From Desulfobacterales bacterium (lineage in GTDB: Bacteria; Desulfobacterota; Desulfobacteria; Desulfobacterales; UBA5852): a DNA stretch of 64,000 bases. Under the pieces are notes generated by a model, which ran no database searches, had not been told where the DNA came from, and was given only the letters and a program-made list of their open reading frames with translations. Position numbers and translations under genes: made by a program. Numbering within the stretch: the stretch's first letter is position 1; the number at the start of each line of letters is the position of its first letter. Location: positions 1,632,001 through 1,696,000 of the forward strand of contig CAXXVS010000002.1 in NCBI GenBank assembly GCA_963674755.2, read 5' to 3'. Shown here one piece after another: positions 11,851-41,490 of the stretch.

Positions 11851-12090
11851 CTATTCAAAAAAACTGCTGTATTCCAACCCCGGTCCAACACATTTCCAAC
11901 CATCATCGATCAATGAAAGCCCTGTCGATCTGAAACTGACGTCAGTCAGACGATTCACGATCGTAACATTCCCCTTCCGATCCAATTGGAAGGCAATCGC
12001 TTTGCCACTCTTGTGCAAGAGGACATAGTCATAGGCCCCTTTTTGAAAAAGTCTTTGTAAGCCCGCATTTTTAAAATCATCCCGGGTCAT
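11851..12090 (-). CDS. Small hypothetical protein
   Basis: 79-aa ORF of lower GC immediately outside the left terminal repeat of the Y1 element. Confidence 0.55.
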   Translation of the reverse strand: MTRDDFKNAGLQRLFQKGAYDYVLLHKSGKAIAFQLDRKGNVTIVNRLTDVSFRSTGLSLIDDGWKCVGPGLEYSSFFE

Positions 12091-12139
12091 CGTTAGATCG
12101 CACTTTCATGTAATGTGGGGACGTTGTTGACAAGCTACA

Positions 12140-13108
12140 CTAACTCGTCCGGTGGAGGATTTGAGAAATACCCGAGGTGGTGACACCCAATCGTCGGGCG
12201 GCCTCGGCACGCGTCAAGCCCAGTTGGTAAACCAATTGGGGTGCCAGATCCCGCCGCAGCTTTGGCAGCACGCCGATACGGCTTCCCGAACGAAGCGTTT
12301 CAATGCCAATGCCGGCTTTTGTGCAGGTCTCCTGGATAAGTTCGTCCGCTTGGGCGCTTGCTTGATTGAACGGCAACTGCCGCGCAGCGTGGACCGTCGC
12401 CTGGGTCACCAGTTCCTGGACAAAGCCGCTGCTGCCCAGGATGCGCTCATCCCCTTTCACCTTATCGCCCCTGCGCCGCAGGCTCTTGACCTCCGACCAG
12501 CCGCCCTGTGATCGCACAAGCCCTCCGCCGACAAGCTCCGGGCGCTGGCCCTGATCCTTCCCGCTGGCCACGAAACGGCGATAGGCCACACGGGCACGCT
12601 TTTCAGTCCGGCCGAACCACCGCAGCACCTCGTCGATCGCCTGCCACGGTCTTTGCCTTTTGCCCAGCACGGCGGCATGCCCGCACCAGGGATAGCGCTC
12701 CAGCGCGGCCAGATCCGCCACCGCTCCGGCCCGAAGCGGGTTAAGGTGGATGTAGCGCACCAGCTCTTTGAAATAGGGATCTTCTTCACACACGATGGAT
12801 TTGTAGCGGTTCTGGAATAAATGCCCGTGACGCCGGTGGCGCCGGTTGTAGCACACGGCATGCCCAGTCAAAAGCCGTCGCATGAACCCGGCAAGCCCGG
12901 CCGGACCACTTTTGACCAGCAGATGGGCATGGTTATTCATCAAGGCCCAGGCGCAGACCGCGGTGCGGGTTTCCGAAGCCAGATCGCCAAGGCGATCCAC
13001 GAATCGTTCCCGATCCTGATCGTCATCCACGATGCGACGTCTTTCGATACCGCGGACAATAACATGATGAAGGGTTCCGGGGGCGTCAAGGCGTGGTCCT
13101 CGGGGCAT
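12140..13108 (-). CDS. Y1 HUH transposase (RAYT/TnpA-REP-like) with C-terminal HTH
   Basis: MPRGPRLDAPG..HHVIVRG, HUH motif NHAHLL, GHLFQNRYKS, catalytic Tyr in YIHLNP, C-terminal AEAARRLGVTTSGIS. Confidence 0.92.
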   Translation of the reverse strand: MPRGPRLDAPGTLHHVIVRGIERRRIVDDDQDRERFVDRLGDLASETRTAVCAWALMNNHAHLLVKSGPAGLAGFMRRLLTGHAVCYNRRHRRHGHLFQNRYKSIVCEEDPYFKELVRYIHLNPLRAGAVADLAALERYPWCGHAAVLGKRQRPWQAIDEVLRWFGRTEKRARVAYRRFVASGKDQGQRPELVGGGLVRSQGGWSEVKSLRRRGDKVKGDERILGSSGFVQELVTQATVHAARQLPFNQASAQADELIQETCTKAGIGIETLRSGSRIGVLPKLRRDLAPQLVYQLGLTRAEAARRLGVTTSGISQILHRTS

Positions 13109-13146
13109 GGTTGACTCCTGATAGGCTAAAATAAGGCAACAGCTCG

Positions 13147-13175
13147 ATGCTAAACTATTTTGTGCACTTTGTCAA
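13147..13175 (-). promoter_or_regulatory. Sigma70-type promoter of the transposase, -35 inside the terminal repeat
   Basis: Minus strand TTGACA-17 nt-TAGCAT. Confidence 0.6.
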
Positions 13176-13502
13176 CAACGTCCCCTATTTACCTTATCGC
13201 AATCTCGGGTTGTATCTGATTTCAGACTTGCGTTATGGTGGCCTCCAACAAAGTATGGATGACATGGTCCGCCCTGCTTTAGCCATGCCGCAAGTTGAAA
13301 TTTCAGCCTCATCATCATTGGCGCGCCACCTGACGCGCCCTGGCCCGTTTCGCGACCATCGTCAGGTGGATGACCGGTGCGCATCGACCACGTGCCGGGC
13401 CTGCCGGAATCGGATGGTGCCGGGGGGAACACGGCTGCCTGAGGTGAGCGAATCAGGCGTTTACATCTACTGCGACGACGACTGGCACCCGAGGTTGGCA
13501 TC

Positions 13503-14867
13503 ATGACCGTTGGCGGGCGACTCCTTAAATTCCATCCGGCAACCCTCGTTCTCACCAGCTTTGTGCTGGTGATCGCCATCGGAACACTCTTGTTGAAATT
13601 GCCGGTTGCGACCCATACCGGCCATATCTCATGGAGTGATGCCCTGTTTACATCCACTTCGGGCGTTTGTGTGACGGGTTTGGCCGTGGTGGACACCGGG
13701 AGCACCTTCACCCTCTTCGGCCAGTGCGTCCTCCTGGCCTTGATCCAGATCGGGGGGCTGGGGCTCATGACCATTTCGGTGACCCTCTTCACGTGGGTGG
13801 GCCGCAGCATTTCCATCCGGCACCGGATGGTCATGCAGGACCTCTTCGCGCACACGCCCCGTGCGGATATCTACAGCCTCGTCAAAAGTATCGTGCTGTT
13901 TACAGCCACAGCGGAGATCGCCGGCGGCTTGGTGCTGACCCTGTTCTGGCACCGTGAAATGCCCTGGGGGCAGGCCGCCTACAACGGAATTTTCCATTCG
14001 GTTTCGGCCTTCTGCAATGCCGGTTTCGCCCTCTTTCCGGACAGCATGATGCGCTACAGCGGGGATCTGCTGCTCAACATCACCATGTGCAGCCTGATCG
14101 TGATCGGCGGGATCGGCTTCCCGGTGCTCTACGACCTGCAGTGCTGGGTCAAATTCCGCAAGCGACAGCGCTGCCGCCTGTCGGTCCAGACGAAAACCGT
14201 CCTGCTGACGACCGCCATCCTCATCGTGGGCGGCGCGGTCTTGTTTTCCCTGCTCGAGCAATTCCCGGCCGGCGACGGGTCCTCCCTCGGCCATCGCCTG
14301 ATGGTACCGCTGTTCCAATCCGTCACCTGCCGGACGGCCGGCTTCAACACGGTCGATATCGCCGGATTGAAAGACGCCACCCTGGCCATGATGATCTTCC
14401 TCATGTTCGTGGGCGCTTCGCCCGGCTCGTGCGGCGGCGGGGTCAAGACCACCACGTTGGCGCTTCTGGCGGCCTTTACCGCCAGCCGTTGGCGCCGTCG
14501 GCGGCGGGTGGATCTGTTCAAGAAAAGCATCCCCCAGGAAACCGTCATCCGCAGCGTGGCCCTCGTTCTGGTCACGATCGGCATTATCGCGCTGGTCTTG
14601 TTCCTGTTGCTGGCCGGGAATGCGGAGCTGCCGTCCCACCAAGCCCGAGGGGTTTTTCTGCCCTTGTTGTTTGAAACCGTGTCCGCTTTCGGGACCGTGG
14701 GGCTGTCCATGGGGGTCACCCCGCAACTGGGCCTTTGGGGCAAGTGCTGGATCATGGCGGTGATGCTGATCGGCCGCGTGGGGGTGCTGACGTTCGCCTA
14801 TATTTTCGTCGGCGCCGGCATGGTCGACGGCATCGAGCACGCCGAAGAAAACCTGATGATCGGATAG
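13503..14867 (+). CDS. ktrB: TrkH/KtrB potassium uptake membrane protein
   Basis: FTSTSGVCVTGL, SAFCNAGF, RTAGFN, SAFGTVGLSMG filter motifs. Confidence 0.92.
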   Translation: MTVGGRLLKFHPATLVLTSFVLVIAIGTLLLKLPVATHTGHISWSDALFTSTSGVCVTGLAVVDTGSTFTLFGQCVLLALIQIGGLGLMTISVTLFTWVGRSISIRHRMVMQDLFAHTPRADIYSLVKSIVLFTATAEIAGGLVLTLFWHREMPWGQAAYNGIFHSVSAFCNAGFALFPDSMMRYSGDLLLNITMCSLIVIGGIGFPVLYDLQCWVKFRKRQRCRLSVQTKTVLLTTAILIVGGAVLFSLLEQFPAGDGSSLGHRLMVPLFQSVTCRTAGFNTVDIAGLKDATLAMMIFLMFVGASPGSCGGGVKTTTLALLAAFTASRWRRRRRVDLFKKSIPQETVIRSVALVLVTIGIIALVLFLLLAGNAELPSHQARGVFLPLLFETVSAFGTVGLSMGVTPQLGLWGKCWIMAVMLIGRVGVLTFAYIFVGAGMVDGIEHAEENLMIG

Positions 14868-14880
14868 AAGGAGCTCCACC

Positions 14881-15537
14881 ATGAAGCGATTTGCAGTGAT
14901 CGGACTTGGCAAATTCGGGTTCCATGCCGCCAAGGCCTTGTATGAGGAAGACAATGAAGTGCTGGCGATCGACAACGACAAGGGACGGGTGCAGGCGATC
15001 GATCCCCACTGTTCGGAGGCCATCGTTCTCAATGCGACGGACAAGGAATCACTGAAGGCTCTGGGGCTGGAAAATTTGGACGGGGTGATTGTTTCCACCG
15101 GCACGAACATCGGTATCAGTGTCTTGATCTGTCTGTATCTGCAGGAGATCGGCGTCCGTAAGATTCTTGCCAAGGCCCTGGACGAAGATCACGCCAAGAT
15201 CTTGAAACGCGTCGGCGCCAGCGAGATCATTCACCCGGAGCGCGACATGGCGGTGCGAATCTCTCGCGGCCTGTCGCGGCCCAATGTCCTGGATTTCATC
15301 CCCCTGGCCGACGAGTACGATTTGATCCAGGTCGGCCCGCCGAGTGAATTTACCGGAAAAAGTCTGAAGGACCTCAATTTGAGGGCCAAGTACAATGTCC
15401 ACGTCATTGCCATAAAAGAACTCGTTCCCGAGAATTTCGTTTTGATACCGCCGGCCAGCTTTGTCATAAAGGACAGCGATATTCTGGTCATGCTCGGCAA
15501 ATCAGAGGATATCAAACGGATAAAAGCGTTGAAATAA
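14881..15537 (+). CDS. ktrA: TrkA/KtrA RCK-domain potassium uptake subunit
   Basis: VIGLGKFG Rossmann motif, IIHPERDMA, C-terminal TrkA_C. Confidence 0.92.
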   Translation: MKRFAVIGLGKFGFHAAKALYEEDNEVLAIDNDKGRVQAIDPHCSEAIVLNATDKESLKALGLENLDGVIVSTGTNIGISVLICLYLQEIGVRKILAKALDEDHAKILKRVGASEIIHPERDMAVRISRGLSRPNVLDFIPLADEYDLIQVGPPSEFTGKSLKDLNLRAKYNVHVIAIKELVPENFVLIPPASFVIKDSDILVMLGKSEDIKRIKALK

Positions 15538-15564
15538 ATCGATACGATTTCTCATCGTGTTGAA

Positions 15565-15780
15565 TCCGAAGCCAGATTGCCAAAGCGATCCAGGAATCGT
15601 TCCCGATCCTGATCGTCATCCACGATGCGACGTCTTTCGATACCGCGGACAATAACGTGATGAAGGGTTCCGGGGGGGGTCCAGGCGAGGTCCTCGGGAC
15701 ATTGTTGACTCCTGATAGGCTAAAAATATGGCAACAACTCAACGCCAAATGTTTTTGTGCACTTTGTCAACAACGTCCCC
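15565..15780 (-). mobile_element. One-ended derivative: right end plus first ~45 codons of the Y1 transposase
   Basis: Aligns by eye with 12972-13185; ends TTGTCAACAACGTCCCC. Confidence 0.88.
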
Positions 15781-15926
15781 ATCTATCCCCAAGCGGCGAT
15801 GATGACCCATTGTTTTGTCGGCATTTCATATCCTCCATGTAGTGTTGTCAGAATCCTTGCCTGCCAATGGGTATCGGAACGGGTAGAAAAGGTTCAGAAG
15901 GCGTCGAGATCGTCTTCACTTAAAGT

Positions 15927-16183
15927 GGGGACGTTGTTGACAAGCTACACTAACTCGTCCGGTGGAGGATTTGAGAAATGCCCGAGGTGGTGACGCCCAA
16001 TCGGCGGGCGGCCTCGGCACGCGTCAGGCCCAGTTGGTAAACCAAACGGGGTGCCAATTCCCGCCGCAGCTTTGGCAGCAAACCGATACGGCTTCCCGAA
16101 CGAAGCGCTTCAATGCTAATGCCGGCTTTAGTGCAGGTCTCCTGGATAAGTTCGTCCGCTTTGGTGCTTGCTTGATTGAACGG
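15927..16183 (-). mobile_element. One-ended derivative: left end plus last ~78 codons of the Y1 transposase
   Basis: GGGGACGTTGTTGACAAGCTACACTAACTCGTCC matches 12117 onward; similarity stops after GATTGAACGG. Confidence 0.9.
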
Positions 16184-16205
16184 TTAATTTCTCCCTTTTA
16201 CAGAA

Positions 16206-17006
16206 TCAAAGCCCGGCCGTGGAGCCGAAGTCGATGTTCAGGCAGGCGCCTGTAATCGGAGCCGCCTGGTTCGTGGTCAGGTAGAAAATCAGCCCCGCGA
16301 CTTCGTCCGGTTCGATAAAACGCGCCTTCTCGCCCTGTGGATAGCGTTCCAGAAGCGCCCTCAAATAGCCTTCCGGGTCGCCGTTTCCGTAGGTATCCGC
16401 CTGGTATTGCAGCATGGGACTCATGATGTCGCCGGGACAAACCGCATTGACGTTGATCATGTCCGGGGCCAGTTCGATGGACAGGGCCTTGGTCATGAGA
16501 GAGACGCCCCCTTTGCTGGCGCAATAAATAGCCGCGCCGACATCGCCCAGCACCCCTGCGTCCGAACTGAGATTCACGATGCTCCCCCGGGTCTTCCTCA
16601 GCTCGGGAATGGCACGGGAACACATGAAATATGCCCCCTTGAGGTTGACATCGATACACCAGTCCCATTCCTCTTCGGTGCTCTTTTCGCTGGCACCTTC
16701 CACCCATACACCGGCCGCGTTGATCAGGATGTCCAGACCTCCGAAGACGCTCACGGTTTCGCGGATGGTCGCTTCGCAATCACCGACCTTGGTGATGTCG
16801 CAGATGCAGGTATATAATCTCTCCCCCAGGGGCGCCAAATCGGAAACGACCTGGGCCAGGCGATCCCCGTTGATGTCGGCCAGCACGACCCCGGCCCCTT
16901 CGATCAGGTAGCGGCGGGCGGTGGCCACGGCCACGCCACCACATCCGCCGGTAATCAGCACGACCTTTTCCTGCCAGTGATCTTTTTCAATCATGACAAC
17001 TCCCAC
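16206..17006 (-). CDS. SDR family oxidoreductase
   Basis: TGGCGGVA, NAAG, YCASK. Confidence 0.9.
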   Translation of the reverse strand: MGVVMIEKDHWQEKVVLITGGCGGVAVATARRYLIEGAGVVLADINGDRLAQVVSDLAPLGERLYTCICDITKVGDCEATIRETVSVFGGLDILINAAGVWVEGASEKSTEEEWDWCIDVNLKGAYFMCSRAIPELRKTRGSIVNLSSDAGVLGDVGAAIYCASKGGVSLMTKALSIELAPDMINVNAVCPGDIMSPMLQYQADTYGNGDPEGYLRALLERYPQGEKARFIEPDEVAGLIFYLTTNQAAPITGACLNIDFGSTAGL

Positions 17007-17017
17007 CGGTCTCCCGC

Positions 17018-17812
17018 TTAATAGTAAAGTTCACGCGGGCCCTTGTATTCCTGAATGGAATTGCCCCCGTCGATGACGATCATTTGTCCCGTAATGTAGG
17101 TGGATTCGTCTGAAGCGAGAAAACCGATCAGGTCGGCAACCTCCATCGGTGTGCCGCCACGCTTCATGGGGGTGTTTATCGCCGCGGCCTTCTCCTCTTC
17201 GGTAGCGGCGTCCGTTGCGATCCAGCCCGGGGCCACGTTGTTGACCGTGATGCCGAACTCCGCCACTTCGAGGGCCAGACTGCGGCTCATGCCGACCATG
17301 GCGGCTTTGGCGGCGCTGTAGGCGGCCTCCCCGGGGTTGCTCACCAGCGGGCCGGTGACCGATGCGACATTGACGATACGTCCGAACCGGTTGGTGATCA
17401 TGATGGGCAAAACAGCCCTGGTTATGTTGAAGCAGGTGTTAAGGTTGCGGTCGATCGACTTGTCCCATTCCTGCCAGCTCAGGCTGGCCATGCGGGTGAA
17501 GGTCTCCGGTTCACCCACTTGTCCCATACCGGCATTGTTCACCAGGATGTCCACGCGGCCCAGATCGTCGAGGGCGCTCTCCGCCAGAGCTTTGACCTGA
17601 TGACGGTCCGTGAGGTCGGCCACATAGGCGTATGCGCGGATGCCGGTCTCCTTGAGGGCCCGGGCGCGGTCAAAGATGCGATCGGTGGTTGAGGTGATGG
17701 CAACGGCTGCTCCTGAAGCCCCCAGCAACCTGGCCGTAGCGAACCCGATCCCATTCGGGTTGCCGCAACCGGTGATCAGGGCCGAGCGGTTATCGAATCG
17801 CTTTTTGTCCAT
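17018..17812 (-). CDS. SDR family oxidoreductase (FabG-like)
   Basis: TGCGNPNGIG, NNAG, YSAAK. Confidence 0.9.
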   Translation of the reverse strand: MDKKRFDNRSALITGCGNPNGIGFATARLLGASGAAVAITSTTDRIFDRARALKETGIRAYAYVADLTDRHQVKALAESALDDLGRVDILVNNAGMGQVGEPETFTRMASLSWQEWDKSIDRNLNTCFNITRAVLPIMITNRFGRIVNVASVTGPLVSNPGEAAYSAAKAAMVGMSRSLALEVAEFGITVNNVAPGWIATDAATEEEKAAAINTPMKRGGTPMEVADLIGFLASDESTYITGQMIVIDGGNSIQEYKGPRELYY

Positions 17813-17826
17813 GACACTCCCTTAAA

Positions 17827-18055
17827 TAGTGCCCATCCAGAGGTGGTAGATTTTGGTTCCGGCCAAGGCCGTAGCGATTTGGAAACCGACGGCATAGCCG
17901 TATGAGCGGCAGCGGCGCGTAGCCCGGCTACGTCGAGGATTTCCAAAGAGCGAGAACGCCGGCTTGTCCGCTAAAGGTGTTATTATCCCTATTCGGGGGC
18001 TCGGCTCACCGGCGGCGGGCCAGGGCCGAAAGATGCCATTTATGGACGGGCACTA
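17827..18055. repeat. Palindrome-bounded intergenic element (REP/MITE-like)
   Basis: TAGTGCCCATCCA...TGGACGGGCACTA terminal inverted repeat with internal hairpins. Confidence 0.65.
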
Positions 18056-18060
18056 AATAT

Positions 18061-19446
18061 CTAATCGTTGGCCAGTGCGGCCATCTCTTCCATAAGCGCA
18101 TCCCAATGCATCAATAGGATGTCAATGTCCTCATCCGTAGCCATGGGCGGCACCAGCATCATGTTGTGGAAAGGCGTTATCAGCAGGCCCCGGTTGGCGA
18201 GAAAGAGATGGGTGTAGTAGATCAGATCCCAGTGGAAGTTCGCCTTGGCTTCCCCGCCATTGACGGGGGACGTCGGCATGAACTGAAGCTCGGCGCGGGC
18301 GCCGCAGCGGGTGACACTCCATGGCAGACGGTATTTGTCGATGGAGGCCTCCAGTCCGTCCGCCATCCGGTTGGCCGCTGCGATCATGCGGTCAAATGCC
18401 GGCGGGGTCGCCACCTCCTCCAAGGTTCGTCGCATGGCGTGAACGGCAAAGGCGTTGCCGGACAGCGTTCCGCCGATCCCCATCGGGTCGGCGACCCCCT
18501 TGTGGCCGAAGGAGGCGTTGATGCGCTCTTTGATGTCCTCCGTAAACCCATATGCGGCAACCGGAATCCCGCCGGCAATGCACTTGCCCAAGGTCACAAA
18601 ATCCGGTTTAAGGCCGAATGCCCTGGTATACCCTCCCCAACCGGTGGAAAAGGTGTGGGTCTCATCGATGACCAGCAACGTGCCGTATTGGTCGCACAGT
18701 TCGCGCAACCGGTCGTGATAGCCCGGAGCGGGCAGGACCATACCGCAGTTCGTCATGACCGGTTCGGCCACGACGCAGGCCACATCTTCATATTGCAATT
18801 CGCGCTCCAGGGCCGCAAGGTCATTGAACTCTACCATTCTTGTCAGCGCGTCTTTAGGGACGGCCGGATTGATGTCGTACTCGGAGCGGAGGGTGAGAGA
18901 ACCGTCGCCGGCAATGTGCGGCAGGGTTTCTTCCACACTGCCGTGATAACATTCGTTGAACGCCAGCGTCTTCGGCCGGCCGGTGAGCACCCGCGCAATT
19001 CGGATGACATAGCGGTTGGCCTCGGTGGCTGTCATGGCCACCTGCCAGTAGGGAACGCCGAAGCGCGCCGCCAGATCGCGGCCGACAGCCAAAGCATCCT
19101 CACTTGGGAGCATGGTCGTGATACCCCGGCGGACCTGTTCGGTTACCGCCTGAACGGTAGGCTCCGGTGAATGGCCGAACATGGCGCCCGTGTCACCCAG
19201 ACAAAAATCAATATATTCGTTGCCGTCCACGTCGATCACGCGGTTTCCGGAAGCCCGTTCGACGAATAGGGGGTAGCGCGTTCCCCAGTCGCCCATCCAC
19301 GGCATGGGAACCCCGTTGAGCAGCATCGTTTGCGCTTCTTTAAACAGCCGACCGGAGTTGGGGGTCCGGGATTCGTAGACGGCAGTCTCGCGATCGTTCA
19401 ACGCTGCCAGTGATTGACCGGTGATGACCCTGTAGGAACTGCGCAT
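18061..19446 (-). CDS. Class III PLP aminotransferase (glutamate-1-semialdehyde aminomutase-like fold)
   Basis: DVDGNEYIDFCLG, IDETHT, TLGKCIAGG, GGTLSGN; GGAGG RBS supports start at 19446. Confidence 0.88.
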   Translation of the reverse strand: MRSSYRVITGQSLAALNDRETAVYESRTPNSGRLFKEAQTMLLNGVPMPWMGDWGTRYPLFVERASGNRVIDVDGNEYIDFCLGDTGAMFGHSPEPTVQAVTEQVRRGITTMLPSEDALAVGRDLAARFGVPYWQVAMTATEANRYVIRIARVLTGRPKTLAFNECYHGSVEETLPHIAGDGSLTLRSEYDINPAVPKDALTRMVEFNDLAALERELQYEDVACVVAEPVMTNCGMVLPAPGYHDRLRELCDQYGTLLVIDETHTFSTGWGGYTRAFGLKPDFVTLGKCIAGGIPVAAYGFTEDIKERINASFGHKGVADPMGIGGTLSGNAFAVHAMRRTLEEVATPPAFDRMIAAANRMADGLEASIDKYRLPWSVTRCGARAELQFMPTSPVNGGEAKANFHWDLIYYTHLFLANRGLLITPFHNMMLVPPMATDEDIDILLMHWDALMEEMAALAND

Positions 19447-19492
19447 GTCGATGCCTCCGATAGACATGGTTATGGATGATGACCCTATTTGG

Positions 19493-19547
19493 CTGAACGC
19501 ACGTTCAGTATAAACTTGGCTATACGTGCGTTCAGTGATATTGTCAA
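19493..19547 (-). promoter_or_regulatory. Promoter of the aminotransferase operon overlapped by two TetR-type operators
   Basis: TTGACA-17-TATAGC on minus strand; palindrome CTGAACG-CA-CGTTCAG at 19493-19508 and half-conserved copy at 19520-19535. Confidence 0.7.
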
Positions 19548-19612
19548 GTTCCGGCGACCGAATCAAACGCACGGTGGCGACGGTATTATGTTTGATCCAC
19601 TAATCCAGGAAA

Positions 19613-20251
19613 ATGGCCATGGCCGCTGATGACCTCAAACCCAATCTGACAAGAGCGGAACAGAAGAAAGAAACCCGGGGAAAACTGATTGAAGCGACCC
19701 TGGATATCATCGCCGAGGGGGGACTGGCCGAGGTGACCCTGCCGAAAGTGGCCAAACGTGCCGGTTTGTCACGCGGCATCTCCAACTTTCACTTTGTTTC
19801 AAAGGACAATCTCCTGCTTGAAACGCTTAAAACGGTTCATTCTGAGTTGGACCGCGTGTGGCGCCACCATCTCATCGAATCGGATCTTCCTCCCGCCGAC
19901 CAGTTGAAGGGCTTTCTTAACGTTGTTTTCAAACCTCCCGTCGCTGACTTGAAAAAGATCTCGGTCTGGCTCGCCTACTGGGGGGAAACCGCTTATCGCA
20001 AGCGGTATCTGGAATCGTTCACCGCCAAAGACCGGGAATACGAAGAGGCCATCGAGGGGCTGATGGCCAGGCTGGCGGGCACCAAGACGACTGTGGGCGG
20101 TATGCCGATCCGCGCCATTGCCGTGGCGCTTACGGCGATAATAGATGGCTGCTGGCTGCAATTCCTCATTGCGCCGGGGCGGCTTGGCGCCGATGAAGCG
20201 ATGAACGCCTGCTGCTCTTATCTGTCACGATTTTTCCAGGAATTCAGGTGA
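19613..20251 (+). CDS. TetR family regulator (BetI-like C-terminus)
   Basis: VAKRAGLSRGISNFHF HTH; LTAIIDGCWL. Confidence 0.9.
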   Translation: MAMAADDLKPNLTRAEQKKETRGKLIEATLDIIAEGGLAEVTLPKVAKRAGLSRGISNFHFVSKDNLLLETLKTVHSELDRVWRHHLIESDLPPADQLKGFLNVVFKPPVADLKKISVWLAYWGETAYRKRYLESFTAKDREYEEAIEGLMARLAGTKTTVGGMPIRAIAVALTAIIDGCWLQFLIAPGRLGADEAMNACCSYLSRFFQEFR

Positions 20252-20314
20252 TACGAACCCATATGGCAGTTGGTTAGAAAAGCATAAAAACATCGAATGT
20301 CCCTACACTACTCC

Positions 20315-20440
20315 CATGATGAAGGGTTCCAGGGGCGTCAAGGCGTGGGCCTCGGGGCATGGTTGGCTCCTGATGATAGGCCAATTTATTGAATTGGCTC
20401 TACGCAATGCAGGTTTGTGCACTTTGTCAACAACGTCCCC
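20315..20440 (-). mobile_element. One-ended derivative: right end plus first ~15 codons of the Y1 transposase
   Basis: CATGATGAAGGGTTCC..CTCGGGGCAT...TTGTCAACAACGTCCCC. Confidence 0.85.
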
Positions 20441-20676
20441 ATCTTTCCGCCCGTTTTCGATAATACAGTATATTAATGCATTCATAGCTAAGCATGTTAT
20501 AGAATTTTTAAGTAGGTGTTTAAACCTATCCTTTTGCAAAGTTTATAAGTTTAGGGCGTTTCCTTGTTATCATTAATTGGATTCATTTGGAAAAATTTGT
20601 CTGTTAAGTGTTGGGATCTGACACCGTTCCTTTTTACACAATTAAGTTAATAAGTTCAGGGCGTCCCCTTGATGTC

Positions 20677-20727
20677 CCCGGCAGGGACTTACACCCTGCA
20701 AGATGCGCCGAGCTTTGCTCGGCGCGA
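20677..20727 (-). mobile_element. Probable 5' fragment of a group IIC intron
   Basis: Minus strand TCGCGCCGAGCAAAGCTCGGCGCATCTTGCAGGGTGTAAGTCCCTGCCGGG resembles, from memory, the 5' end of class C group II introns; follows CGTTA. Confidence 0.5.
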
Positions 20728-20746
20728 TAACGACGCTAAGCCCCTG

Positions 20747-21613
20747 CTATCCTTCAATTTCATCAGCCATTGCGTTGAATTGATCTATAAGCTTATTCCA
20801 TTCTTTATTCAACGCTATTTTAAATATGGATTGAATCGCATTTAAAATTATTATCATAAGATCCGCAGATGAAAATAACAATAGATCAACGCCCTTCGTT
20901 TCCGGCCCCCAAAGTATCTCTTCAATCAAATTATCATCGTCAATTTTGAAGTAATGTTCAAGATCCCTTGTGCTTGAATGAATAGTATCACTCAATAAAA
21001 CATATTGAGAATCATAATAGGAAAGCATTCCTGCCGCTTCGGCTTTATCTTTAATAAATAGTTTTTTTATTTTTAATTCCTTAATTTGTTCGCTAATATC
21101 GTCAATATCTATATTAATTTCATCAACCGTTTTACCTTCAATTTTAACGCCCCTCTCATGGTTAAATAAGACGGCTTTCAAGGCGGACCTTCGATGGAAA
21201 TAGTCTTGACATATTAGTTGTTCAATAAAATTTTCATTCTTGGCTACTGCAACAAGATTAAAAGCGATTTCTGAAAGGCATCTCAAAATTGTACGTACTT
21301 CAAAAACCATCCCTTTTTCGGCTAACAAAATTATGCCTTGAAAATTGCTTAAAGCCCTTGTAAGATATCCAGCCGAAATATATTTTTTAGCTAACGCAAG
21401 TTGCCTTTTTTTTCTTTCTATTTCAAAATCGGGGCTGTCTATAATATCTTTTACTTCAATATCGCGTTCAATATGAAGATCCAGCATTTTGGACAAGCCG
21501 AAGCGATTTAGTTTCTCGCATAAAGAGAACCAATGTCTGTGATCATCTAAAATTTGCTTTGCAAATTTATGGATTTCAAATGAAAGGAAACCGTCTTGAT
21601 TTATATCACCCAT
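20747..21613 (-). CDS. AT-rich hypothetical protein (DUF5677-like)
   Basis: 288 aa; RTILRCLSE and YVLLSDTIHS motifs; clearly lower GC than flanks. Confidence 0.75.
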   Translation of the reverse strand: MGDINQDGFLSFEIHKFAKQILDDHRHWFSLCEKLNRFGLSKMLDLHIERDIEVKDIIDSPDFEIERKKRQLALAKKYISAGYLTRALSNFQGIILLAEKGMVFEVRTILRCLSEIAFNLVAVAKNENFIEQLICQDYFHRRSALKAVLFNHERGVKIEGKTVDEINIDIDDISEQIKELKIKKLFIKDKAEAAGMLSYYDSQYVLLSDTIHSSTRDLEHYFKIDDDNLIEEILWGPETKGVDLLLFSSADLMIIILNAIQSIFKIALNKEWNKLIDQFNAMADEIEG

Positions 21614-21683
21614 AATAGTCCTCTATTTGATTATGAACTATGAGTACCTAATGCCATTATTGGGAAAAGCGTGCAATAGAAAG

Positions 21684-21723
21684 GAAAACGGGGACGATGC
21701 CGAAAAGTGGCGTCCCCGTTTTC
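21684..21723. repeat. Mini-palindrome built from the GGGGACG/CGTCCCC terminal motif
   Basis: GAAAACGGGGACG-14 nt-CGTCCCCGTTTTC. Confidence 0.7.
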
Positions 21724-21834
21724 AATCCGCCTGCATTATGCATCAAGGCACCGGCATACAGGCGTCCCTCCCGAAGCGCTCCAAACTGCGTTCAATATCT
21801 TCAAGCCGCTGGATGACTGTATAAGCCAAGGACA

Positions 21835-21884
21835 GGATTGATCTGACATTATGTTGGTTTGTACACTTTGTCAACAACGTCCCC
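21835..21884 (-). mobile_element. Isolated right end of the Y1 element (no coding part)
   Basis: GGATTGATCTGACATTATGTTGGTTTGTACACTTTGTCAACAACGTCCCC, near-identical to 22179-22228. Confidence 0.85.
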
Positions 21885-21988
21885 TAACTGTCCCCAGGTA
21901 TTTTGTTATGGGATACTTTTCGGTTATTTAAAAATTGTCTTTTAGGATTAGCCTTTGTTTATATATGAATGGACGTCCCTGCCCCCTC

Positions 21989-22228
21989 CCCAGGCACAGA
22001 CCGCGGTGCGGGTTTCCGAAGCCAGATTGCCAAGGCGATCCAGGAATCGTTCCCGATCCTGATCTTCATCCACAATGCGACGTCTTTCGATACCCCGAAT
22101 AATCGCATGGTGAAGGGTTCCGGGGGCATCCAGGCGAGGGCCGCGGGGCATGGTTGACTCCTGATAGATCAATTTATGGGATTGATCTGACACTATGTTG
22201 GTTTGTACACTTTGTCAACAACGTCCCC
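21989..22228 (-). mobile_element. One-ended derivative: right end plus first ~54 codons of the Y1 transposase
   Basis: Translates MPRGPRLDAPGTLHHAIIRG...TAVCAW then breaks. Confidence 0.9.
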
Positions 22229-22234
22229 TAACTG

Positions 22235-22498
22235 TCGGTTCTGCTTGGCCCCCCGCAGTTCCTCCCCTTCGATGAGGAGGATCGGTTTCGACCCCTCGTT
22301 GGTCAGCTTCAACCGGTTGACGTTTCCCGCGTCGTCGACTTCCGTGACCGTCAACACCCCGCTCTCGATGGCCTGCTCCAGGGTCAGGTAGTAGGGCTCG
22401 ACGCCGTTGGCATGCAACACCGGGAACACGGTCAAATTGCGGCAGGTCTGTTTTTTACCAACTTCACAGCCGTTCAAAAAGGAAAGAATGGATTTCAT
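22235..22498 (-). pseudogene. Truncated ARPP-1/DUF6569-like gene
   Basis: NLTVFPV..YLTLEQA..LLIEGEELRGAKQNR then runs straight into the element end; AGGAGG RBS. Confidence 0.75.
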
Positions 22499-22650: not shown

Positions 22651-22959
22651 ATGGACAAGAATAAAAAACGACAACTTGAATCCAAGGGTTACCGGGTCGG
22701 AGACACCAAGGACTTCCTTGGGCTCAGCCAGGAACAATCCACCTACATCGAAATGAAATTGGCCCTGAGCCAAGCCCTGGCCCGGAAACGCAAACAGCGC
22801 CGTTTGACGCAATTGGAACTGGCCCGGAAGCTCAATTCCAGCCAGTCCAGGATCGCCAAGATGGAAAAGGGGGATCCCACCGTATCCGTGGACCTTCTTG
22901 TCAAAGCGCTTTTGGCCATGGGCGCCACCAAAAAAAGCATAGCTAAAACCATCGGCTGA
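22651..22959 (+). CDS. XRE-family HTH protein (HigA-like antitoxin), no intact toxin partner
   Basis: LTQLELARKLNSSQSRIAKMEKGDPTVSVDLL. Confidence 0.85.
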   Translation: MDKNKKRQLESKGYRVGDTKDFLGLSQEQSTYIEMKLALSQALARKRKQRRLTQLELARKLNSSQSRIAKMEKGDPTVSVDLLVKALLAMGATKKSIAKTIG

Positions 22960-23082
22960 GGCAACAGCATCGCCTTTTCCGCTTTACGCAAAACTAACCT
23001 ACCCTGTCCTTGAGTATTGTTTTGAAACATCGACCAAAAAAACTCAAGCTTCTGCCTTTGTGATCCCAAGGACACACAGCTA

Positions 23083-24933
23083 TTAATCATTGACCAGCAA
23101 TAACGGTATCCATGGCATGGCGCCCTGACCCATTACCATCCCTTGACTTGCAAGCGTTGATATTTCTCCATCAGTGAGGACGCGATTATATATGCGAACT
23201 TCATCAATCTTGCCTATGAAATGCCCGAAGTGGCTCGCTATTTCACCATACCCGATTTTCAGGGGACTGTCGTTCGTCACGATGTCTGTGTCCCCTACTG
23301 TTGATCGCGTATTGATCAATTTACCATTGCGATAGATCTTTTGTACATGTCCTTCATGGTCATAAACACCGACGATATGGTACCATTTGTTTAATGCGTT
23401 TACATCCGATGTGCGGACACCTTCAATCACGCCGCCCGACATCGACCAGTCCCTGACAGCGAAATCAGTGCTGTGGCAAAAATCTAATTCGTAGTTTCTC
23501 CCACCCCCGTAAAAATCATTATTCGACTTTGATAAAATATGGCTGCATGTGTTTGTCTCATATCCAGTGGGGTAGGCCCAGGCTGATATAGTGAACGAGT
23601 CTTCTAATTTCAGTGTATCGGTGCTGGGGATAACGATCTCGTCATCGAGCCCGTCAAACATTGCGCATTGCCCGATTACGCCTTCGCCAAAGGTAACGCC
23701 GTTTTCTATAGCGCCATTGTTGTCATTGTCGGTGGCGTCCAGGGCATCCCCGTCCATTGGATAATGGGCGACCAGTCCGAAATTGAGGTCACCAGCCAAA
23801 TTTATCGTGGTTAACTCCCAAATAAATTCGGTTTCATAACAGGTGACATCGCCGTGCGGGGGGTATTCCCTGTCATTAATGATGGCCTTGATAATGCCGA
23901 TGTCCGGATTCGTCCAATACGTGTCCGTATTAATTCCCTCTTCCCCATCGTCCTGCTCGTAATGATAGACCACCTGAAATTTCACGCAGGGAAAAGTGCC
24001 CGCTGGCACATCGACGCTTTCATTGCTTAAATAGGTGATGTGGGCATCAATATCGTAGGTGCCCAGGGGCCTGTCGGACTCGTCATAGTCTCCATCGCCC
24101 AGGTACAAATCACTGGCGCTGTCGTCCAACACTAACGGGATAAGTTCCAAGGGATTATTGTTGATGGCCGTTAAAACATCGTCGCCGTCGTCCTCGTGCG
24201 CCAGTTCGACAACCTGCTGAATCGCGCTGGGCGATAAATGCCAAGAAAATTCTTCCGACAGACTTCCCAAGTCAGGGACGTCGGTCTGTAGATGGAACAC
24301 CGTGCATTCGTAATCATCTGGTATTTGAACAATTTTTCTTTCCTTAGCCTCCAAAACGATGGTTCCCGTATAAAGCACGTTTTCAGCATGTTCGAAATTG
24401 CCGTAAAGATAACCCCACTGAAGGGAAACCTGATCGCCATTTGCATCGATAATAGCGGTGATTGCATATCGTCCCTCTTTGGTTTTAAACCATCGCGCGC
24501 CGCCGCCTCTGTAGTCCCACGTATCGTTAAAGACAGTCCCTTCAGAGCGCCAGTCGGAAGGCGGCGGTAGAAATGTTTGGGTCCCGAAATAATCGCCTAT
24601 CGGTCCGTAAACGCTTGAAATGCCCGTTTCCGAGAAGGAATCGACGTAAACCCCTTGGCTGTTGCCGGTGAAGGCGATGTCGCCATCTTCCATATCGACA
24701 ATTTTGCCCGACGAAAAATCAAAGCCGGATCCCACTGGGACGATTGTCACTTGAAGATCATCACGGTCTACATTCTCGAACATCGAATACGTAACGTCAT
24801 ATTCCCACCGATTGCCGATATTGAAAAACGCTTCCTTGAATAACTGATGTTCTGCAGCGTTAGCATTTGAAACAAAAAACAGCGAACACAATAGAAGTAT
24901 TATCAGAAAACCTCTTCTCTTTTCCGATCTCAT
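23083..24933 (-). CDS. Secreted acidic protein with C-terminal LamG-like domain and AMPWIPLLL tail
   Basis: Signal peptide ending ANA-A; GLVAHYPMDG, WYHIVGVYD, GKIDEVRIYNRVLT. Confidence 0.85.
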   Translation of the reverse strand: MRSEKRRGFLIILLLCSLFFVSNANAAEHQLFKEAFFNIGNRWEYDVTYSMFENVDRDDLQVTIVPVGSGFDFSSGKIVDMEDGDIAFTGNSQGVYVDSFSETGISSVYGPIGDYFGTQTFLPPPSDWRSEGTVFNDTWDYRGGGARWFKTKEGRYAITAIIDANGDQVSLQWGYLYGNFEHAENVLYTGTIVLEAKERKIVQIPDDYECTVFHLQTDVPDLGSLSEEFSWHLSPSAIQQVVELAHEDDGDDVLTAINNNPLELIPLVLDDSASDLYLGDGDYDESDRPLGTYDIDAHITYLSNESVDVPAGTFPCVKFQVVYHYEQDDGEEGINTDTYWTNPDIGIIKAIINDREYPPHGDVTCYETEFIWELTTINLAGDLNFGLVAHYPMDGDALDATDNDNNGAIENGVTFGEGVIGQCAMFDGLDDEIVIPSTDTLKLEDSFTISAWAYPTGYETNTCSHILSKSNNDFYGGGRNYELDFCHSTDFAVRDWSMSGGVIEGVRTSDVNALNKWYHIVGVYDHEGHVQKIYRNGKLINTRSTVGDTDIVTNDSPLKIGYGEIASHFGHFIGKIDEVRIYNRVLTDGEISTLASQGMVMGQGAMPWIPLLLVND

Positions 24934-25017
24934 TATTCTTCTCCTTCCCATCGCTTGAGATCATTATTACTGGAACACAAAACACCTTTTCTGCATATTG
25001 TCGCTGTAATTATAAGA

Positions 25018-25829
25018 TTACTCCACAAGAAGCAGCGGGATCCACGGCATTGCCTTTAATTCAGATGTCTCGTCCTTGATATTTGGATCTCCTTCGCCCG
25101 CATCCACTTGGCCGTTCCGATTAAGGTCTTCATCACCATCGGAGACTCCATCGCCGTCAGTGTCTGCCAAAAGTGGATTCGTTGTGGTAGAAGAATCCGC
25201 ATCCGGGACAAAAACCGCCAAGTCTGTATCCGACCCCACATCGGCCTCGGTCAGGCCGCTCTCGGTCCATCCTAGATGCCGTCGTTATCGGTGTCAGGAT
25301 CGCAGGGGTCGGTTTCGCCCGCATCAAGCACACCGTTGTGATTGGCGTCTTCCACCCCGTCCAGGATGCCGTCGTCGTCCGTGTCGGCATCGTTGGGATC
25401 TGTGCAGCCGGATTCCTCCAAAGAATCCTGTAAACCGTCGTTATCTGAATCCTGAATTTCGGAGGCTTGGAGAAAAAGACTGTGCTCGGATCCCGCTGCT
25501 ACCTGGGAAACATCGCTGGCGACCTGTACGGGCGTGATGCGATCGGTGCTCGTGCCGTCGCCTAGTTGGCCAGATTCATTATAGCCCATGGCCCAGAGCG
25601 TGCCGTCGGTCTTTACAAACAGGCTGTGAACGGGTCCCGCAGCCACCTGAGAAATATCTGTGGCGACCTGAATGGGTGTGATGCGTTCGGTGGTCGTGCC
25701 GTCGCCGAGCTGGCCATAGGAATTAGCGCCCATCGCCATAAGCGAGTCCGCTCTTGAACTTATTGGAATTATGGCCACCAGAAGAGCGAAGGAGGTAATC
25801 ATGAAAAACGATAATTTGGTCCTTCTCAT
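25018..25829 (-). pseudogene. Secreted RCC1-repeat / DxDxDG-repeat protein, interrupted by a stop and a 1-nt deletion
   Basis: GxNxxGQLGDG and HSLF repeats; DTDDDG repeats; TAG at 25272-25274 and frameshift near 25267; distal frame ends AMPWIPLLLVE. Confidence 0.8.
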
Positions 25830-25868
25830 GATTAACTTCGGAATTGGGAAACAGGTCATATCGGTCTC

Positions 25869-26234
25869 CTAAAGCCAGCTGATGTTGTTAAGAGGACATC
25901 CGCTAGATCGAATTTCATCGGCTTTTTTGGGGTTACGAAAATCCGCCACGACGTCGGCTTCGCACCGCGCAAAATTCAGCCGACCGCTGCGCATGTGCGC
26001 CTGCAGATAAATCGGGTACCCGTGGCCCGATACTAGATCGACCGCGTACCAGGTCGCAGTGCCGCAATACTCGACATTATGAACCTCATCGAATCCAGGA
26101 AATAGATCGGCAGAATATTGATCGACGGCCGAAACCATCTCGATGCAGGTAAGATCGGCGGCTTGGGAGGAAGGGATTAAAAGCGTTACGGCAAGGACGA
26201 CCAGAAAACACCACAGCCCCATTCGGTTTGGCAT
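25869..26234 (-). CDS. Small secreted hypothetical protein (possibly a remnant)
   Basis: GGAG RBS, signal peptide ending SQA-A. Confidence 0.5.
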   Translation of the reverse strand: MPNRMGLWCFLVVLAVTLLIPSSQAADLTCIEMVSAVDQYSADLFPGFDEVHNVEYCGTATWYAVDLVSGHGYPIYLQAHMRSGRLNFARCEADVVADFRNPKKADEIRSSGCPLNNISWL

Positions 26235-26984
26235 TGCGATCTCCAGGTGAATTCAGAAGAGAATGAAAAAGGAACGATGTCTGTATGGATATTCGACACT
26301 TGTGTAATCCGGCCGATGAAAGGGATGTTTTGTTGGGAGAAAAGAAAGTGGGATTCGGCACGGGCGGAGTCCGAATTACATACAGTCCATATGATGGTTC
26401 GACGCTCCATGACCGACCCTATTGTGGTTTCACAATTTATTTATCTGGATACCGCAGCCATAGATATACGGATAAGCCAATAAGGTTGTAATTTCAGCCG
26501 GCAGTGAACCATTGCGGTTCAGGGAAGGGATCAGAAGTATAATACGTGCAAAAAACAAGCCGTAATTATAGGCACTTATTGATTAGGTAATTTGTAAATA
26601 ACCGCAGATAGATTAGGTTACTCGAAATATTTATGCGACGTCTAATTATGAAACCGGGTTCATAATCCTTGTCCTGATAATGGGAATTCAAATACCCATA
26701 TTGAAATTGTCTACTTGCCGTTATTGCCTGGCGCGGGGGGACTACCTAAAGCCGAGCCTGCTGTTGGATTCTTAACAGCCTGGATGAGTTTTACATGCTG
26801 ATAGGTTTAGCCGAAGCCGACGGACAGCAAAAGAATGGCAGACAAAACTACAAAGTCAATAAGTAGGAACACTTCCTGATATATCACCTGTGATGAGTTC
26901 CAGCCCCTGCTACAATCAGAACTGAAAACCCTCTTGGCCCTCAAACGGATGATTGTCCCCTGATTCACCAAGCCGGGAGTGCCC

Positions 26985-28199: not shown

Positions 28200-28308
28200 C
28201 GATTCTTCCTTGTTTGGTTTTAGTGAGGCCTCTCCGAATGGCAGTTAGCTTCAGGAATATCCCTCGAAAGCGGCTTATGGACGGTTTTAAGATTTTGCTT
28301 TTGAATTT

Positions 28309-28476
28309 CCCTTTGTCCCGCGCCGAGCATCGGCGGGACGGCCGGATTAAAGCGCGCGGACTGTCTGAGCGAAGCGAGTTTCCGCGTGCTCCGGCCGTCG
28401 CGACGACGCGCAGGGTTAAGCGGGGCACGGGCGTTTTCTTTTGCTTCTGTTTTCTTGCACGTGCAAGAAAATGAAG
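28309..28476 (+). repeat. Structured intergenic repeat, copy B (no nested hairpin)
   Basis: Same architecture as 2306-2503. Confidence 0.9.
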
Positions 28477-28632
28477 AAATCATTTATGGAAATGTGCCCC
28501 AGACAGTAAAGCCTCTTTAAATCCTCCTCCAGCAGTTGATGCTTTATCAGAACTTTTTTTATGCCCTTCGTTTTAAATTGTCCGCATCCCTAAACTGTGA
28601 ACCCATAAACAGGTCAACACCTTCATTTTGTC

Positions 28633-30504: not shown

Positions 30505-30610
30505 AATCGCCGGGCCAACCATAAATCATTTATAGCGCTCCCCACGACAGCTATAGTGGAAGTCCCCGAAAGGGTTCAATCGGTCGGGAGTGCTTTTCAC
30601 TAAATGGTTT

Positions 30611-30799
30611 CTTCATTTTCTTTCACGTGAAAGAAAACAGAAGCAAAAGAAAACGCCCGTGTCCCGCTTCTCCCTGCGCGTCGTCGCAACAGCCGGAGCA
30701 CGCGGAAACTCACCCACCTACGGCGAGCCTTCGGCGGGTTCAGACAGTCCGCGCGCTTTTATCCGGCCGCAACGCCGATGCTCAGCGCGGGACAAAGGG
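30611..30799 (-). repeat. Structured intergenic repeat, copy C (reverse orientation)
   Basis: Reverse complement of copies A/B. Confidence 0.9.
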
Positions 30800-30898
30800 A
30801 GATTCAAAACCAAAACCTTCAAAACCCTTCTCCCCCCTTTCTCTAAACAGGCGACACGCGGAAGATGGTTTTCCTATACCCGAATGATCGGGCACCTA

Positions 30899-39841: not shown

Positions 39842-41212
39842 TCAGAGCGGCAGCTGGATGCCGAAACGCTTCATCCGGTTCCAGACCGTCACGCGGGTCA
39901 CGCCTAAAATCTTGGCGGCGGCCGTCCGGTTGCCCCCGGTTTGCTGCAACGCGGTGATCAACTGCCGGCGTTGGGTTTCCTCCCGGCTTAGCCCCGGCTC
40001 CCGGCGTGGGGCGGCCAGCACGCCCTGCCCCACGATATGGGGAGGAAAATGGTAGTATTCCAGGCGATTGTCATGACAGGTCACACAGGCGTACTCGAAA
40101 GCGCTTTTCAGTTCGCGCACATTGCCGGGCCAGGGGTAGTTCATCAGGAGGGCCATGGCCTCGGGGCTGACCGCCGGGAGGGTTTGGCCGGTCTTCAAAC
40201 TGATCCCTTTAAGGAAAGCCTCGGCCAGCAGGGGGATGTCCTCGGTTCGCTCTCTCAGGGGCGGCACACAGATCGGGATGACGTTGATGCGGTAGAACAG
40301 GTCTTTGCGAAACACGCCTTCAGCCACCAGCGCGTCGAGATTCCGGTTGGTCGCGGAAATAATCCGCACGTTGATGGGGATCGGTGTATTGGCCCCAACC
40401 CGTTCGACCACCTTCTCTTCCAGCACACGCAGCAGTTTGACCTGAATATGGGGGGGCAGATCCCCAATCTCATCCAGGAAAATCTCCCCGCGCTGGGCCG
40501 CCTCGAACCGCCCTTCCCGATCCCGGAACGCACCGGTGAACGCGCCTTTGACGTGACCGAAAAGTTCGCTTTCCAATAGCGATTCGTTTAAAGCGGCACA
40601 ATTGACCTTGACGAAAGGCTTGTCCCGGCGGATGCCGACATCGTGGATGGCGCGCGCCACCATCTCCTTGCCGGTGCCGCTCTCTCCCAGGATAATGACC
40701 GGTGCGTCCGACCGGGCGGCGTTGCGGACCAGCTCGAACACGCGGCAGATGGCGGCCGAGGCTCCCAGGATACCGCTGAAGCCGTCTTCCAGATGATACT
40801 CTTGCCGGAAAGCCTCTAACTGATCTTCCCGGCGCACCAGTTCGGTCACGTCGGTGAGGGTCTCCACGGCACCGACCACCTTGCGCGTGGCCCCCTCCAG
40901 AAGCGATGCGTTCTTGATGACGTGCACCGGACGGCCGTCCTTGCGTTTCAGGGTACAGCGGTTGGCGTTGATGCGGCCCGTGCGAAACAGATTGCACCAG
41001 CTGCGCGCCCCGGTGTCCTGTGCCGCTTCACAGATATCGCAGCGCAGCAGCCGGCAACTCCGGCCGACGGCTTCCTCACGGCTGTATCCGGTAATCGTTT
41101 CAAAGGCGCGGTTGACCGAAACGATCCGCCCCCTTTTGTCGACGATCATGACCCCGTCACGGATGGTGTTGACGACGGTTTTCCAATGGAAATTCAGATC
41201 TTCTTCGCGCAT
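39842..41212 (-). CDS. Sigma54-dependent activator (PAS-AAA-Fis HTH); start 41212 or 41236
   Basis: GESGTGKE, ESELFGH, GAFTGA, WPGNVREL, C-terminal HTH. Confidence 0.93.
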   Translation of the reverse strand: MREEDLNFHWKTVVNTIRDGVMIVDKRGRIVSVNRAFETITGYSREEAVGRSCRLLRCDICEAAQDTGARSWCNLFRTGRINANRCTLKRKDGRPVHVIKNASLLEGATRKVVGAVETLTDVTELVRREDQLEAFRQEYHLEDGFSGILGASAAICRVFELVRNAARSDAPVIILGESGTGKEMVARAIHDVGIRRDKPFVKVNCAALNESLLESELFGHVKGAFTGAFRDREGRFEAAQRGEIFLDEIGDLPPHIQVKLLRVLEEKVVERVGANTPIPINVRIISATNRNLDALVAEGVFRKDLFYRINVIPICVPPLRERTEDIPLLAEAFLKGISLKTGQTLPAVSPEAMALLMNYPWPGNVRELKSAFEYACVTCHDNRLEYYHFPPHIVGQGVLAAPRREPGLSREETQRRQLITALQQTGGNRTAAAKILGVTRVTVWNRMKRFGIQLPL

Positions 41213-41375
41213 GCCGGCCCTGTTAAAATTGAACATGTGTTAAAAAAAATTTAACGTCTTTTACACCCGCCTAAAGGTCTTGGCAACCACCCCGAGAATG
41301 TTTCCCAAATAGCAAACCCCTTCGGCATCACGGCATCGACCGGTTTAAACGCCCCCTATCGAGACCGCGGCCCAT

Positions 41376-41392
41376 CTGGCACCATAATTGCC
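41376..41392 (+). promoter_or_regulatory. Sigma54 (-24/-12) promoter
   Basis: CTGGCACCATAATTGCC, GG-N10-GC, divergent from a sigma54 activator. Confidence 0.8.
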
Positions 41393-41490
41393 ATGATACT
41401 TGCCCAGGAAGGATTATGGCCTGTCCTTATTCCACGGCAACTTATCCGGTTTCGCGATGGGAACCGGCCCATAAACGGAGGGAAATTCAA

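Follow-up and report, generated by a model that had tools for sequence, protein, structure and literature searches.

Clustered one-ended copies of a TIRtron in a variable island of a Desulfobacterales genome

A 64-kb stretch of DNA from a Desulfobacterales bacterium (GenBank assembly GCA_963674755.2, contig CAXXVS010000002.1, positions 1,632,001–1,696,000; hereafter the window) carries one intact transposable element of 1069 bp and, close to it, five partial copies that each retain a single terminal inverted repeat (TIR) and separate unrelated gene blocks. The element belongs to an already named kind, the TIRtron, whose transposase is termed TIRYT. On balance, we lean towards reading this stack as TIRtron remnants from several alleles and families, gathered as a colony in a variable island, with insertions, deletions and partial duplications produced there through one-ended joining by the enzyme.

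The end repeat and its transposase

The exact 17-mer GGGGACGTTGTTGACAA was found seven times within 10.1 kb, with plus-strand starts at 12117 and 15927 and minus-strand copies ending at 13185, 15780, 20440, 21884 and 22228; no further exact copy is present in the window. Four others lie elsewhere, making 11 in the whole 6.71-Mb genome, against a chance expectation of 0.0008 copies, and the probability of 7 out of 11 falling within 10.1 kb is ~3e-14. All partial copies bearing GGGGACGTTGTTGACAA are oriented alike. The five keep ~46 (frameshifted), 77–78, 15, 0 and 54 codons of the transposase, and their leaders show 71–87% identity to that of the intact copy while the 17-mer end is unchanged. 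A preliminary description, made from the letters of the window, had reported this count, these positions, the shared orientation, the differing lengths of transposase and the varying leaders beside a constant end, and exact searches of window and genome, together with the measured identities, bore it out on each point. It had also proposed that even scattering of the 17-mer over the genome would speak against its account; mapping showed the opposite, with seven of the 11 copies clustered here. Its annotation of the blocks (ktrBA, SDR-SDR-aminotransferase-TetR and an ARPP-1-like gene) was right as well, and the AT-rich gene that it called an orphan encodes DUF5677.

With W allowed at one position, the 17-mer was present in 20 of 151 searched genomes (own genome counted), so that its invariance reflects a family-wide constraint rather than recent spread. 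Inside the stack there are also ends from two other TIRtron families, at 20668 and 21979 (both minus), and the variable region reaches past the interval noted earlier, to 34389.

The transposase matches Pfam Y1_Tnp with 44.9 bits (cut-off 23), and the H60-x-H62 motif (H60-A-H62 here), Y119 and N123 are invariant among 29 aligned relatives. The predicted structure, with a mean predicted local distance difference test score (pLDDT) of 84, consists of a Y1 core and a C-terminal helical domain with three helices; its best structural match is Escherichia coli TnpA-REP (4ER8), and a sequence search of the PDB gave nothing significant. At the C-terminus there is a weak sigma70-type match (residues 291–321), a paralog has a DnaA match at 236–320, and no Pfam helix-turn-helix domain was found in the transposase at E 0.001. 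The inner part of the upstream TIR (13160–13177) contains two adjacent 9-mers, each two positions off the DnaA-box consensus, possibly a candidate site for the DnaA-like C-terminal domain.

Scores below cut-off with the RAYT profile NF047646 (62 bits, cut-off 80) and far below it with the IS200 profile NF033573 (18.9 bits, cut-off 55), as well as the lack of end hairpins (the TIR regions fold no better than shuffled sequences, z −0.25 to 1.5), fit assignment to the TIRtron/TIRYT class. This class was named by Di Nocera et al. 2013 (PMC3733652) and, in the portions of Quentin et al. 2018 (PMC6006769) drawn on here, probably corresponds to TnpA-Y1 subclass 2.1, the second-largest subclass in that study, with 14.9% of strains. 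By the features described for these groups (Y1 core; long protein whose C-terminal extension resembles helix-turn-helix domains such as Bac_DnaA_C, HTH_23 or HTH_28; TIRs) the present element fits both. The end GGGGACGT agrees with the published GGGGWSAS at six of eight positions, a consensus that, according to its paper, fits only some TIRs. The premise of hairpin ends, carried over in the preliminary description from IS200/IS605 and RAYT enzymes, is therefore inapplicable, the ends being TIRs without a sub-terminal hairpin.

Relatives of the transposase were found in 32 of 41 genomes. TIR pairs flank 24 of the 35 full-length relatives examined, 5 of 40 loci having been left out as partial genes, and the own genome holds several TIRYT families with differing GGGGAC or GGGGTC ends. 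A search of a plasmid collection gave no match at 1e-30.

Breakpoints, alleles and duplicated ends

In a sister species (genome G004), the same element lies between argP and ktrBA, with 92% nucleotide identity over 12117–15564 and 91% amino acid identity in the transposase. Synteny stops at 15564, at the start of the first partial copy, and returns at 34390; between these edges the sister species has 2.3 kb versus 19 kb here, and no TIRtron end was found beyond its ktrBA. Because the sister species shares element and ktrBA, and synteny ends at the first partial copy, ktrBA is old, not recent cargo, and the stack is lineage-specific. At the outer edge of 13185, ~57 bp of the sister flank is absent here. 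In genome G005, argP lies 1.7 kb from a homolog of window 39849–42870, and same-family ends occur beyond argP on its opposite side, in another variable stretch. Towards the far edge of the stack, the match to an ARPP-1 homolog in G001 (89%) begins exactly at 22236, and the homolog runs past this point without a TIR; the end at 22228 thus cut a gene. Homologous clusters of the SDR/aminotransferase/TetR block in G003, G018, G229 and G260 have no TIR or transposase nearby, at an identity of ~70–74% that makes this a weak comparison. Comparison for whole-block gain or loss covered other-species genomes and read-derived contigs.

At least five joints (13185, 15564, 16183, 20314 and 21834) are bridged by contigs of sequencing run X1 with zero differences, which argues against the misassembly that the preliminary description had named as a possible undoing, with the qualification that X1 may be the source sample; among the contigs listed none spans the whole stretch, and block order and the remaining joints rest on the assembly itself. 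Block depths differ inside run X3. In run X6, a single sediment contig passes straight from 15919 to 16202 and lacks the fragment with the downstream end; in two further runs, contigs start or end at 16203 and 15921. The X6 joint suggests that the fragment starting at 15927 was inserted into a contiguous block, likely the one formed by the adjoining gene stub and the SDR genes; a reading of 15927–20440 as one two-ended cargo transposon was doubted after this joint was seen.

Identity of the partial copies to the intact one ranges from 82 to 94% (71% for a 50-bp copy, and down to 71% in leaders), and the leader at 15780 is nearer to the element of the sister species than to its neighbour copy. 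The pair ending at 21884 and 22228 is 98% identical over 58 bp and shares an 8-bp outer flank. Apart from this pair, the partial copies are separate alleles. Such differences are what separate arrivals predict, in keeping with the repeated arrivals argued for earlier.

The signature of one-ended joining was sought in relatives. Tandem units composed of a 6–12-nt flank, GGGAC and 0–120 nt of inner DNA numbered 27 distinct cases in 178 loci (2.0 Mb), compared with 2–7 for ten other 5-mers. Some are nested, with a fixed outer edge and a shrinking inner part, the product expected when a fixed nick outside the end is joined to a variably placed 3' end. This excess of end-duplications suggests one-ended joining in the family. 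Sibling copies had at least five (often 5–9) outer bases in common in 14 of 35 hand-picked pairs, versus 1.3% for unrelated flank pairs. No target-site duplication longer than 2 bp was detected in 24 elements, for which the flank consensus before GGGGAC is W-T-A. Next to the inner junctions at 16184 and 20303, the sequence is faintly like the missing opposite end. At G000:C3:763641-764681 (G000 being the own genome, C1 to C3 its contigs), ends of two TIR families have the same outer flank, as if swapped at the GGGGAC core.

On the leading strand lie 11 of 12 own-genome TIRYT loci (p 0.005). A leading-strand bias as the general cause of co-orientation was rejected, since a matching skew was seen at only 18 of 33 loci in other genomes and, with a coding-balanced measure, at 16 of 27 (loci with <9 kb of flank left out).

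Contents of the stack and its surroundings

The intact element, the partial copies and the blocks between them are as follows.

12117–13185, minus: intact TIRtron of 1069 bp, perfect 17-bp TIRs (12117–12133 and 13169–13185) around the transposase gene
12140–13108, minus: TIRYT/TnpA-Y1 subclass 2.1-like transposase, 322 amino acids, Pfam Y1_Tnp, helical C-terminal domain
13503–15537, plus: ktrB-ktrA potassium uptake genes, same position in G004
15565–15780, minus: one-ended copy with upstream TIR, leader and ~46 frameshifted codons, 90% to the intact copy
15781–15926, minus: stub consisting of intergenic DNA and, up to the TIR, 13 codons of a reading frame preceded by a ribosome-binding site
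15927–16183, minus: one-ended copy with downstream TIR and the last 77–78 codons, 94% to the intact copy
16206–20251, mixed: SDR, SDR and class III aminotransferase (minus), BetI-type TetR (plus)
20315–20440, minus: one-ended copy, 82% to the intact copy, keeping 15 codons with leader and upstream TIR
20644–20668, minus: second-family TIRtron end, GGGGACGCCCT type
20677–20732, minus: 56-bp piece of a multicopy element, 98–100% to three other genome places, 89% to a fourth
20747–21613, minus: AT-rich DUF5677 gene, ~33% GC
21835–21892, minus: one-ended copy with TIR, 33-bp leader and 8-bp outer flank, 98% to 22179–22236
21958–21980, minus: third-family TIRtron end, GGGACGTCCATTC type
21989–22236, minus: one-ended copy, 85% to the intact copy, keeping 54 codons with leader, TIR and 8 bp of outer flank
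22236–22498, minus: ARPP-1 gene truncated 8 bp beyond the TIR, 5' portion present (PF20208 positions 2–81 of 297)

The inner edge of the copy at 15565–15780 coincides with the synteny break relative to the sister species. The reading frame of the stub is a putative gene start, for which no homolog was found in the own genome. The multicopy element represented at 20677–20732 follows an attC-like site at C1:732358; the piece is putatively the 5' end of a group II intron, for which there was no Rfam match, and the Rfam scan as a whole gave no relevant match.

Several further observations were made in and around the stack. A hairpin at 21684–21723 with GGGGACG/CGTCCCC arms (z −4.4) may be a terminator or a minimal TIR dimer. 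High-copy intergenic repeats resembling miniature inverted-repeat transposable elements, unrelated to the TIRtron, lie at 17819–18059 (inside the SDR block), 28233–28554 and 30541–30841, each with dozens of copies in the own genome and in sister species. A 79-amino acid reading frame at 11851–12090 (minus), without an NCBIfam match, recurs three times in the variable, TIR-bearing stretch of G005 and once in G008, ~1 kb from a transposase stub, and is frameshifted or degraded in G004. From 22651 to 26500 the island continues with no TIR near, holding a lone helix-turn-helix antitoxin-like gene (93% to a copy in G003) and predicted secreted proteins of lower GC with LamG and RCC1 repeats. Elsewhere in the genome, near-identical TIR-bearing segments (~570 bp aligned) at C1:623634 and C2:634831 begin low-GC islands, and the two sites share a short, highly conserved sequence that probably represents tRNA genes.

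Alternative explanations and known systems

If the favoured reading holds, one-ended strand transfer by the TIRYT enzyme likely gave rise to the partial copies, and the remnants likely serve as opportunistic joints for insertions, local deletions and partial duplications, the passenger blocks having likely come by other routes. Joining to a nearby nascent strand would yield a tandem end-duplication and joining to a distant or foreign strand a one-ended joint; the other side would be closed by host repair, which is proposed to leave inner junctions free of a motif. We infer all of these catalytic steps. Support for opportunistic joints comes from the ends found at breakpoints (15564, 22236 and the flank loss at 13185). 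Consistent with association, in 9 of 9 own-genome loci tested the TIR copies, except the shared intact element, had no syntenic match in the sister species, compared with one neighbouring 25-kb stretch of which 82% is common to both. A number of points weigh on the other side. The nine loci were picked around TIRs with thresholds that differed and a single stretch as control, so that they show association only, and the 178 loci scanned for tandem units were fetched largely around TIRYT genes and overlap. Inner junctions have no common dinucleotide or motif, and ~10 of the 35 sibling alignments are confounded by tandem neighbours. Upstream and downstream ends are kept similarly in this family (5 versus 3), random deletion of whole copies likewise leaves one-ended remnants, the X6 joint is a single contig whose shorter side has 22 letters, under the caution limit of the tool, and a literature search covering mostly open papers, without supplements, found no assay of TIRYT or subclass 2.1 activity.

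The preliminary description had proposed that the enzyme repeatedly joins its end to foreign DNA at this locus, giving an integron-like array. Enzyme-driven capture of this kind, in which each round leaves a TIR with a partial copy, cargo and the next TIR, is a serious contender that we nevertheless hold to be unlikely. Read on the minus strand, the window shows that layout four times, and the clustering of ends in lineage-specific DNA, their position at breakpoints and the one-ended signature in the family all stand behind the joining itself. At G004:C27, moreover, an intact copy and a 723-bp, 100% identical partial duplicate surround a 5.8-kb block that is not syntenic with the own genome, the pair 21884/22228 surrounds a foreign insert, and at C3:1807 kb (G000:C3:1807145) a remnant marks the edge of a ~100-kb island whose orthologous edge in the sister species (G004:C27:138000-151075, 13 kb) has that intact TIRtron, which is of another family. 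The array of captured units was not supported. The genes that adjoin the intact copy, ktrBA, are shared rather than newest, with no end beyond them in the sister species; outer flanks mostly differ, as do the copies themselves at 82–94% identity; ARPP-1 is cut by an end; cargo homologs occur without ends in four genomes; inner junctions have no common motif; and the fragment at 15927 appears inserted into a contiguous block, on the weak evidence of one contig. Stacks are also rare. A survey of the neighbourhoods of related transposases, another check named earlier, showed no extra end in 16 of 24 elements, two or more in 6 and an extra transposase fragment in 1, and at 13 metagenome loci this end occurs alone or as a mini-pair, set among ordinary genes and with no transposase found. 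Doubtful to the same degree is the broader proposal that TIRYT is a widespread, unrecognised engine of gene acquisition, nicking beside the TIR and ligating the end to incoming foreign single strands at persistent hotspots, for which the window would be an old product of many rounds and G004:C27 a fresh single round. Lower again stands purely passive decay, in which whole TIRtrons of several alleles inserted into a permissive island and the blocks were then reshuffled by ordinary deletions and by RecA-type recombination from copy to copy, with no one-ended chemistry. The different alleles, the motif-free inner junctions, the faint likeness to a missing opposite end at 16184 and 20303, and internally deleted two-ended minis (C3:1231 kb and G005) fit such a course, as do ~180-bp direct repeats at C3:1807/1818 kb, including 73 bp of a host gene, which flank an 11-kb low-GC metabolic block as homologous integration would leave them. 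Left unexplained by it are the nested end-duplications with fixed outer edge and variable inner length, the shared outer flanks and the loss of flank exactly at the outer edge of 13185. Decay with homologous recombination probably contributes.

That the stack derives from a classical integron cassette array, or results from misassembly, is highly improbable, and it is likely not an integron-like cassette system either, the ends cutting through genes rather than framing them. The genome does have an integron integrase and attC-like arrays holding mini-TIR elements, and the putative intron piece at 20732 has an attC-like stretch ahead of it. However, no integrase over cut-off was found near the window, the sole TIGR02249 match over cut-off being at C2:2339 kb, ~690 kb away; the blocks are multi-gene, of mixed orientation and mostly of host-like GC; intact cassettes with a fixed crossover site were not seen, ARPP-1 being cut and the inner junctions variable; and the bridged joints stand against misassembly. 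The DUF5677 gene could at most be a cassette-derived candidate within the stack. Elsewhere, a 25-kb island at G000:C3:2470751-2495964, absent from the sister species at a near-clean empty site, contains attC-like sites together with TIR dimers of 60 bp from another TIRYT family, at least eight of them co-oriented, with low-GC genes in between, and similar islands occur at C3:1415-1436 kb and C1:722-732 kb. No integrase over cut-off adjoins these islands, with short sub-cut-off fragments at C1:722 kb and C3:1409 kb. Dimer arrays of this kind (family F) had been considered as TIR-delimited cassettes and were dropped as support, since they contain attC-like sites, as judged by eye. From the mini-TIR dimers in attC-like arrays and the distant integrase it follows that islands assembled by other machinery are also colonised by TIR elements.

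Co-oriented sites among accessory genes are known from integrons, and one-ended capture of flanks by rolling-circle HUH enzymes is known from IS91/ISCR and Helitron elements. Unlike integrons, the stack has no tyrosine recombinase or attC at its joints and no rule of intact cassettes; unlike IS91/ISCR and Helitrons, the element has symmetrical ends, and the Pfam scan gave no match to a Y2 or helicase family. With TIRtrons as described in the cited sections (PMC3733652 and PMC6006769) it shares a Y1/HUH core with a long C-terminal helical extension, the lack of REP hairpins, and GGGG-starting TIRs close to the coding sequence that also occur singly, as dimers or in clusters. Those sections give no description of one-ended copies with variable transposase remnants between unrelated blocks, of carried outer flanks or of ends at synteny breaks. 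The REPs of REPtron/RAYT systems are genome-abundant hairpins, unlike the 11 exact, unfolded copies seen here beside a sub-cut-off NF047646 score. IS200/IS605 elements (IS608, ISDra2) share the Y1 fold and, like the present element, make no target duplication longer than 2 bp, but their TnpA is short, and they have sub-terminal hairpins and, in the account cited here, no TIRs (PMC6006769).

E. coli TnpA-REP with its REP/BIME sequences, the top fold match (4ER8), cleaves over a range of >400 nt from the site it binds and joins the strands again (Ton-Hoang et al. 2012, PMC3333891); this cleavage at variable distance and the amplification model would suit the end-duplications. As described in the cited text, however, it binds GTAG-tagged hairpins and cuts at C|T, whereas the TIRs here are not hairpins and no C|T rule was seen. 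Nearest in setting are the subclass 2.1 TnpA-REP genes associated with prochlorosins in picocyanobacteria, where full and truncated copies occur among variable genes and enzyme-driven diversification has been proposed (Laurenceau et al., bioRxiv 10.1101/2020.03.09.984088); no inverted repeats were found there, a single cargo family is involved, and the same authors later saw no strong evidence for or against causation. The literature search, made mostly without subscription papers or supplements, gave nothing on one-ended TIRtron joints or TIRYT-driven capture.

The locus and its relatives define a putative binding site, place the predicted nick a few bases beyond the end and supply natural products of the presumed reaction, namely end-duplications and one-ended joints. 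What subclass 2.1 enzymes do, and whether they help to build variable islands, can now be tested directly; capture, if true, would open a way of acquiring genes that needs no tyrosine recombinase.

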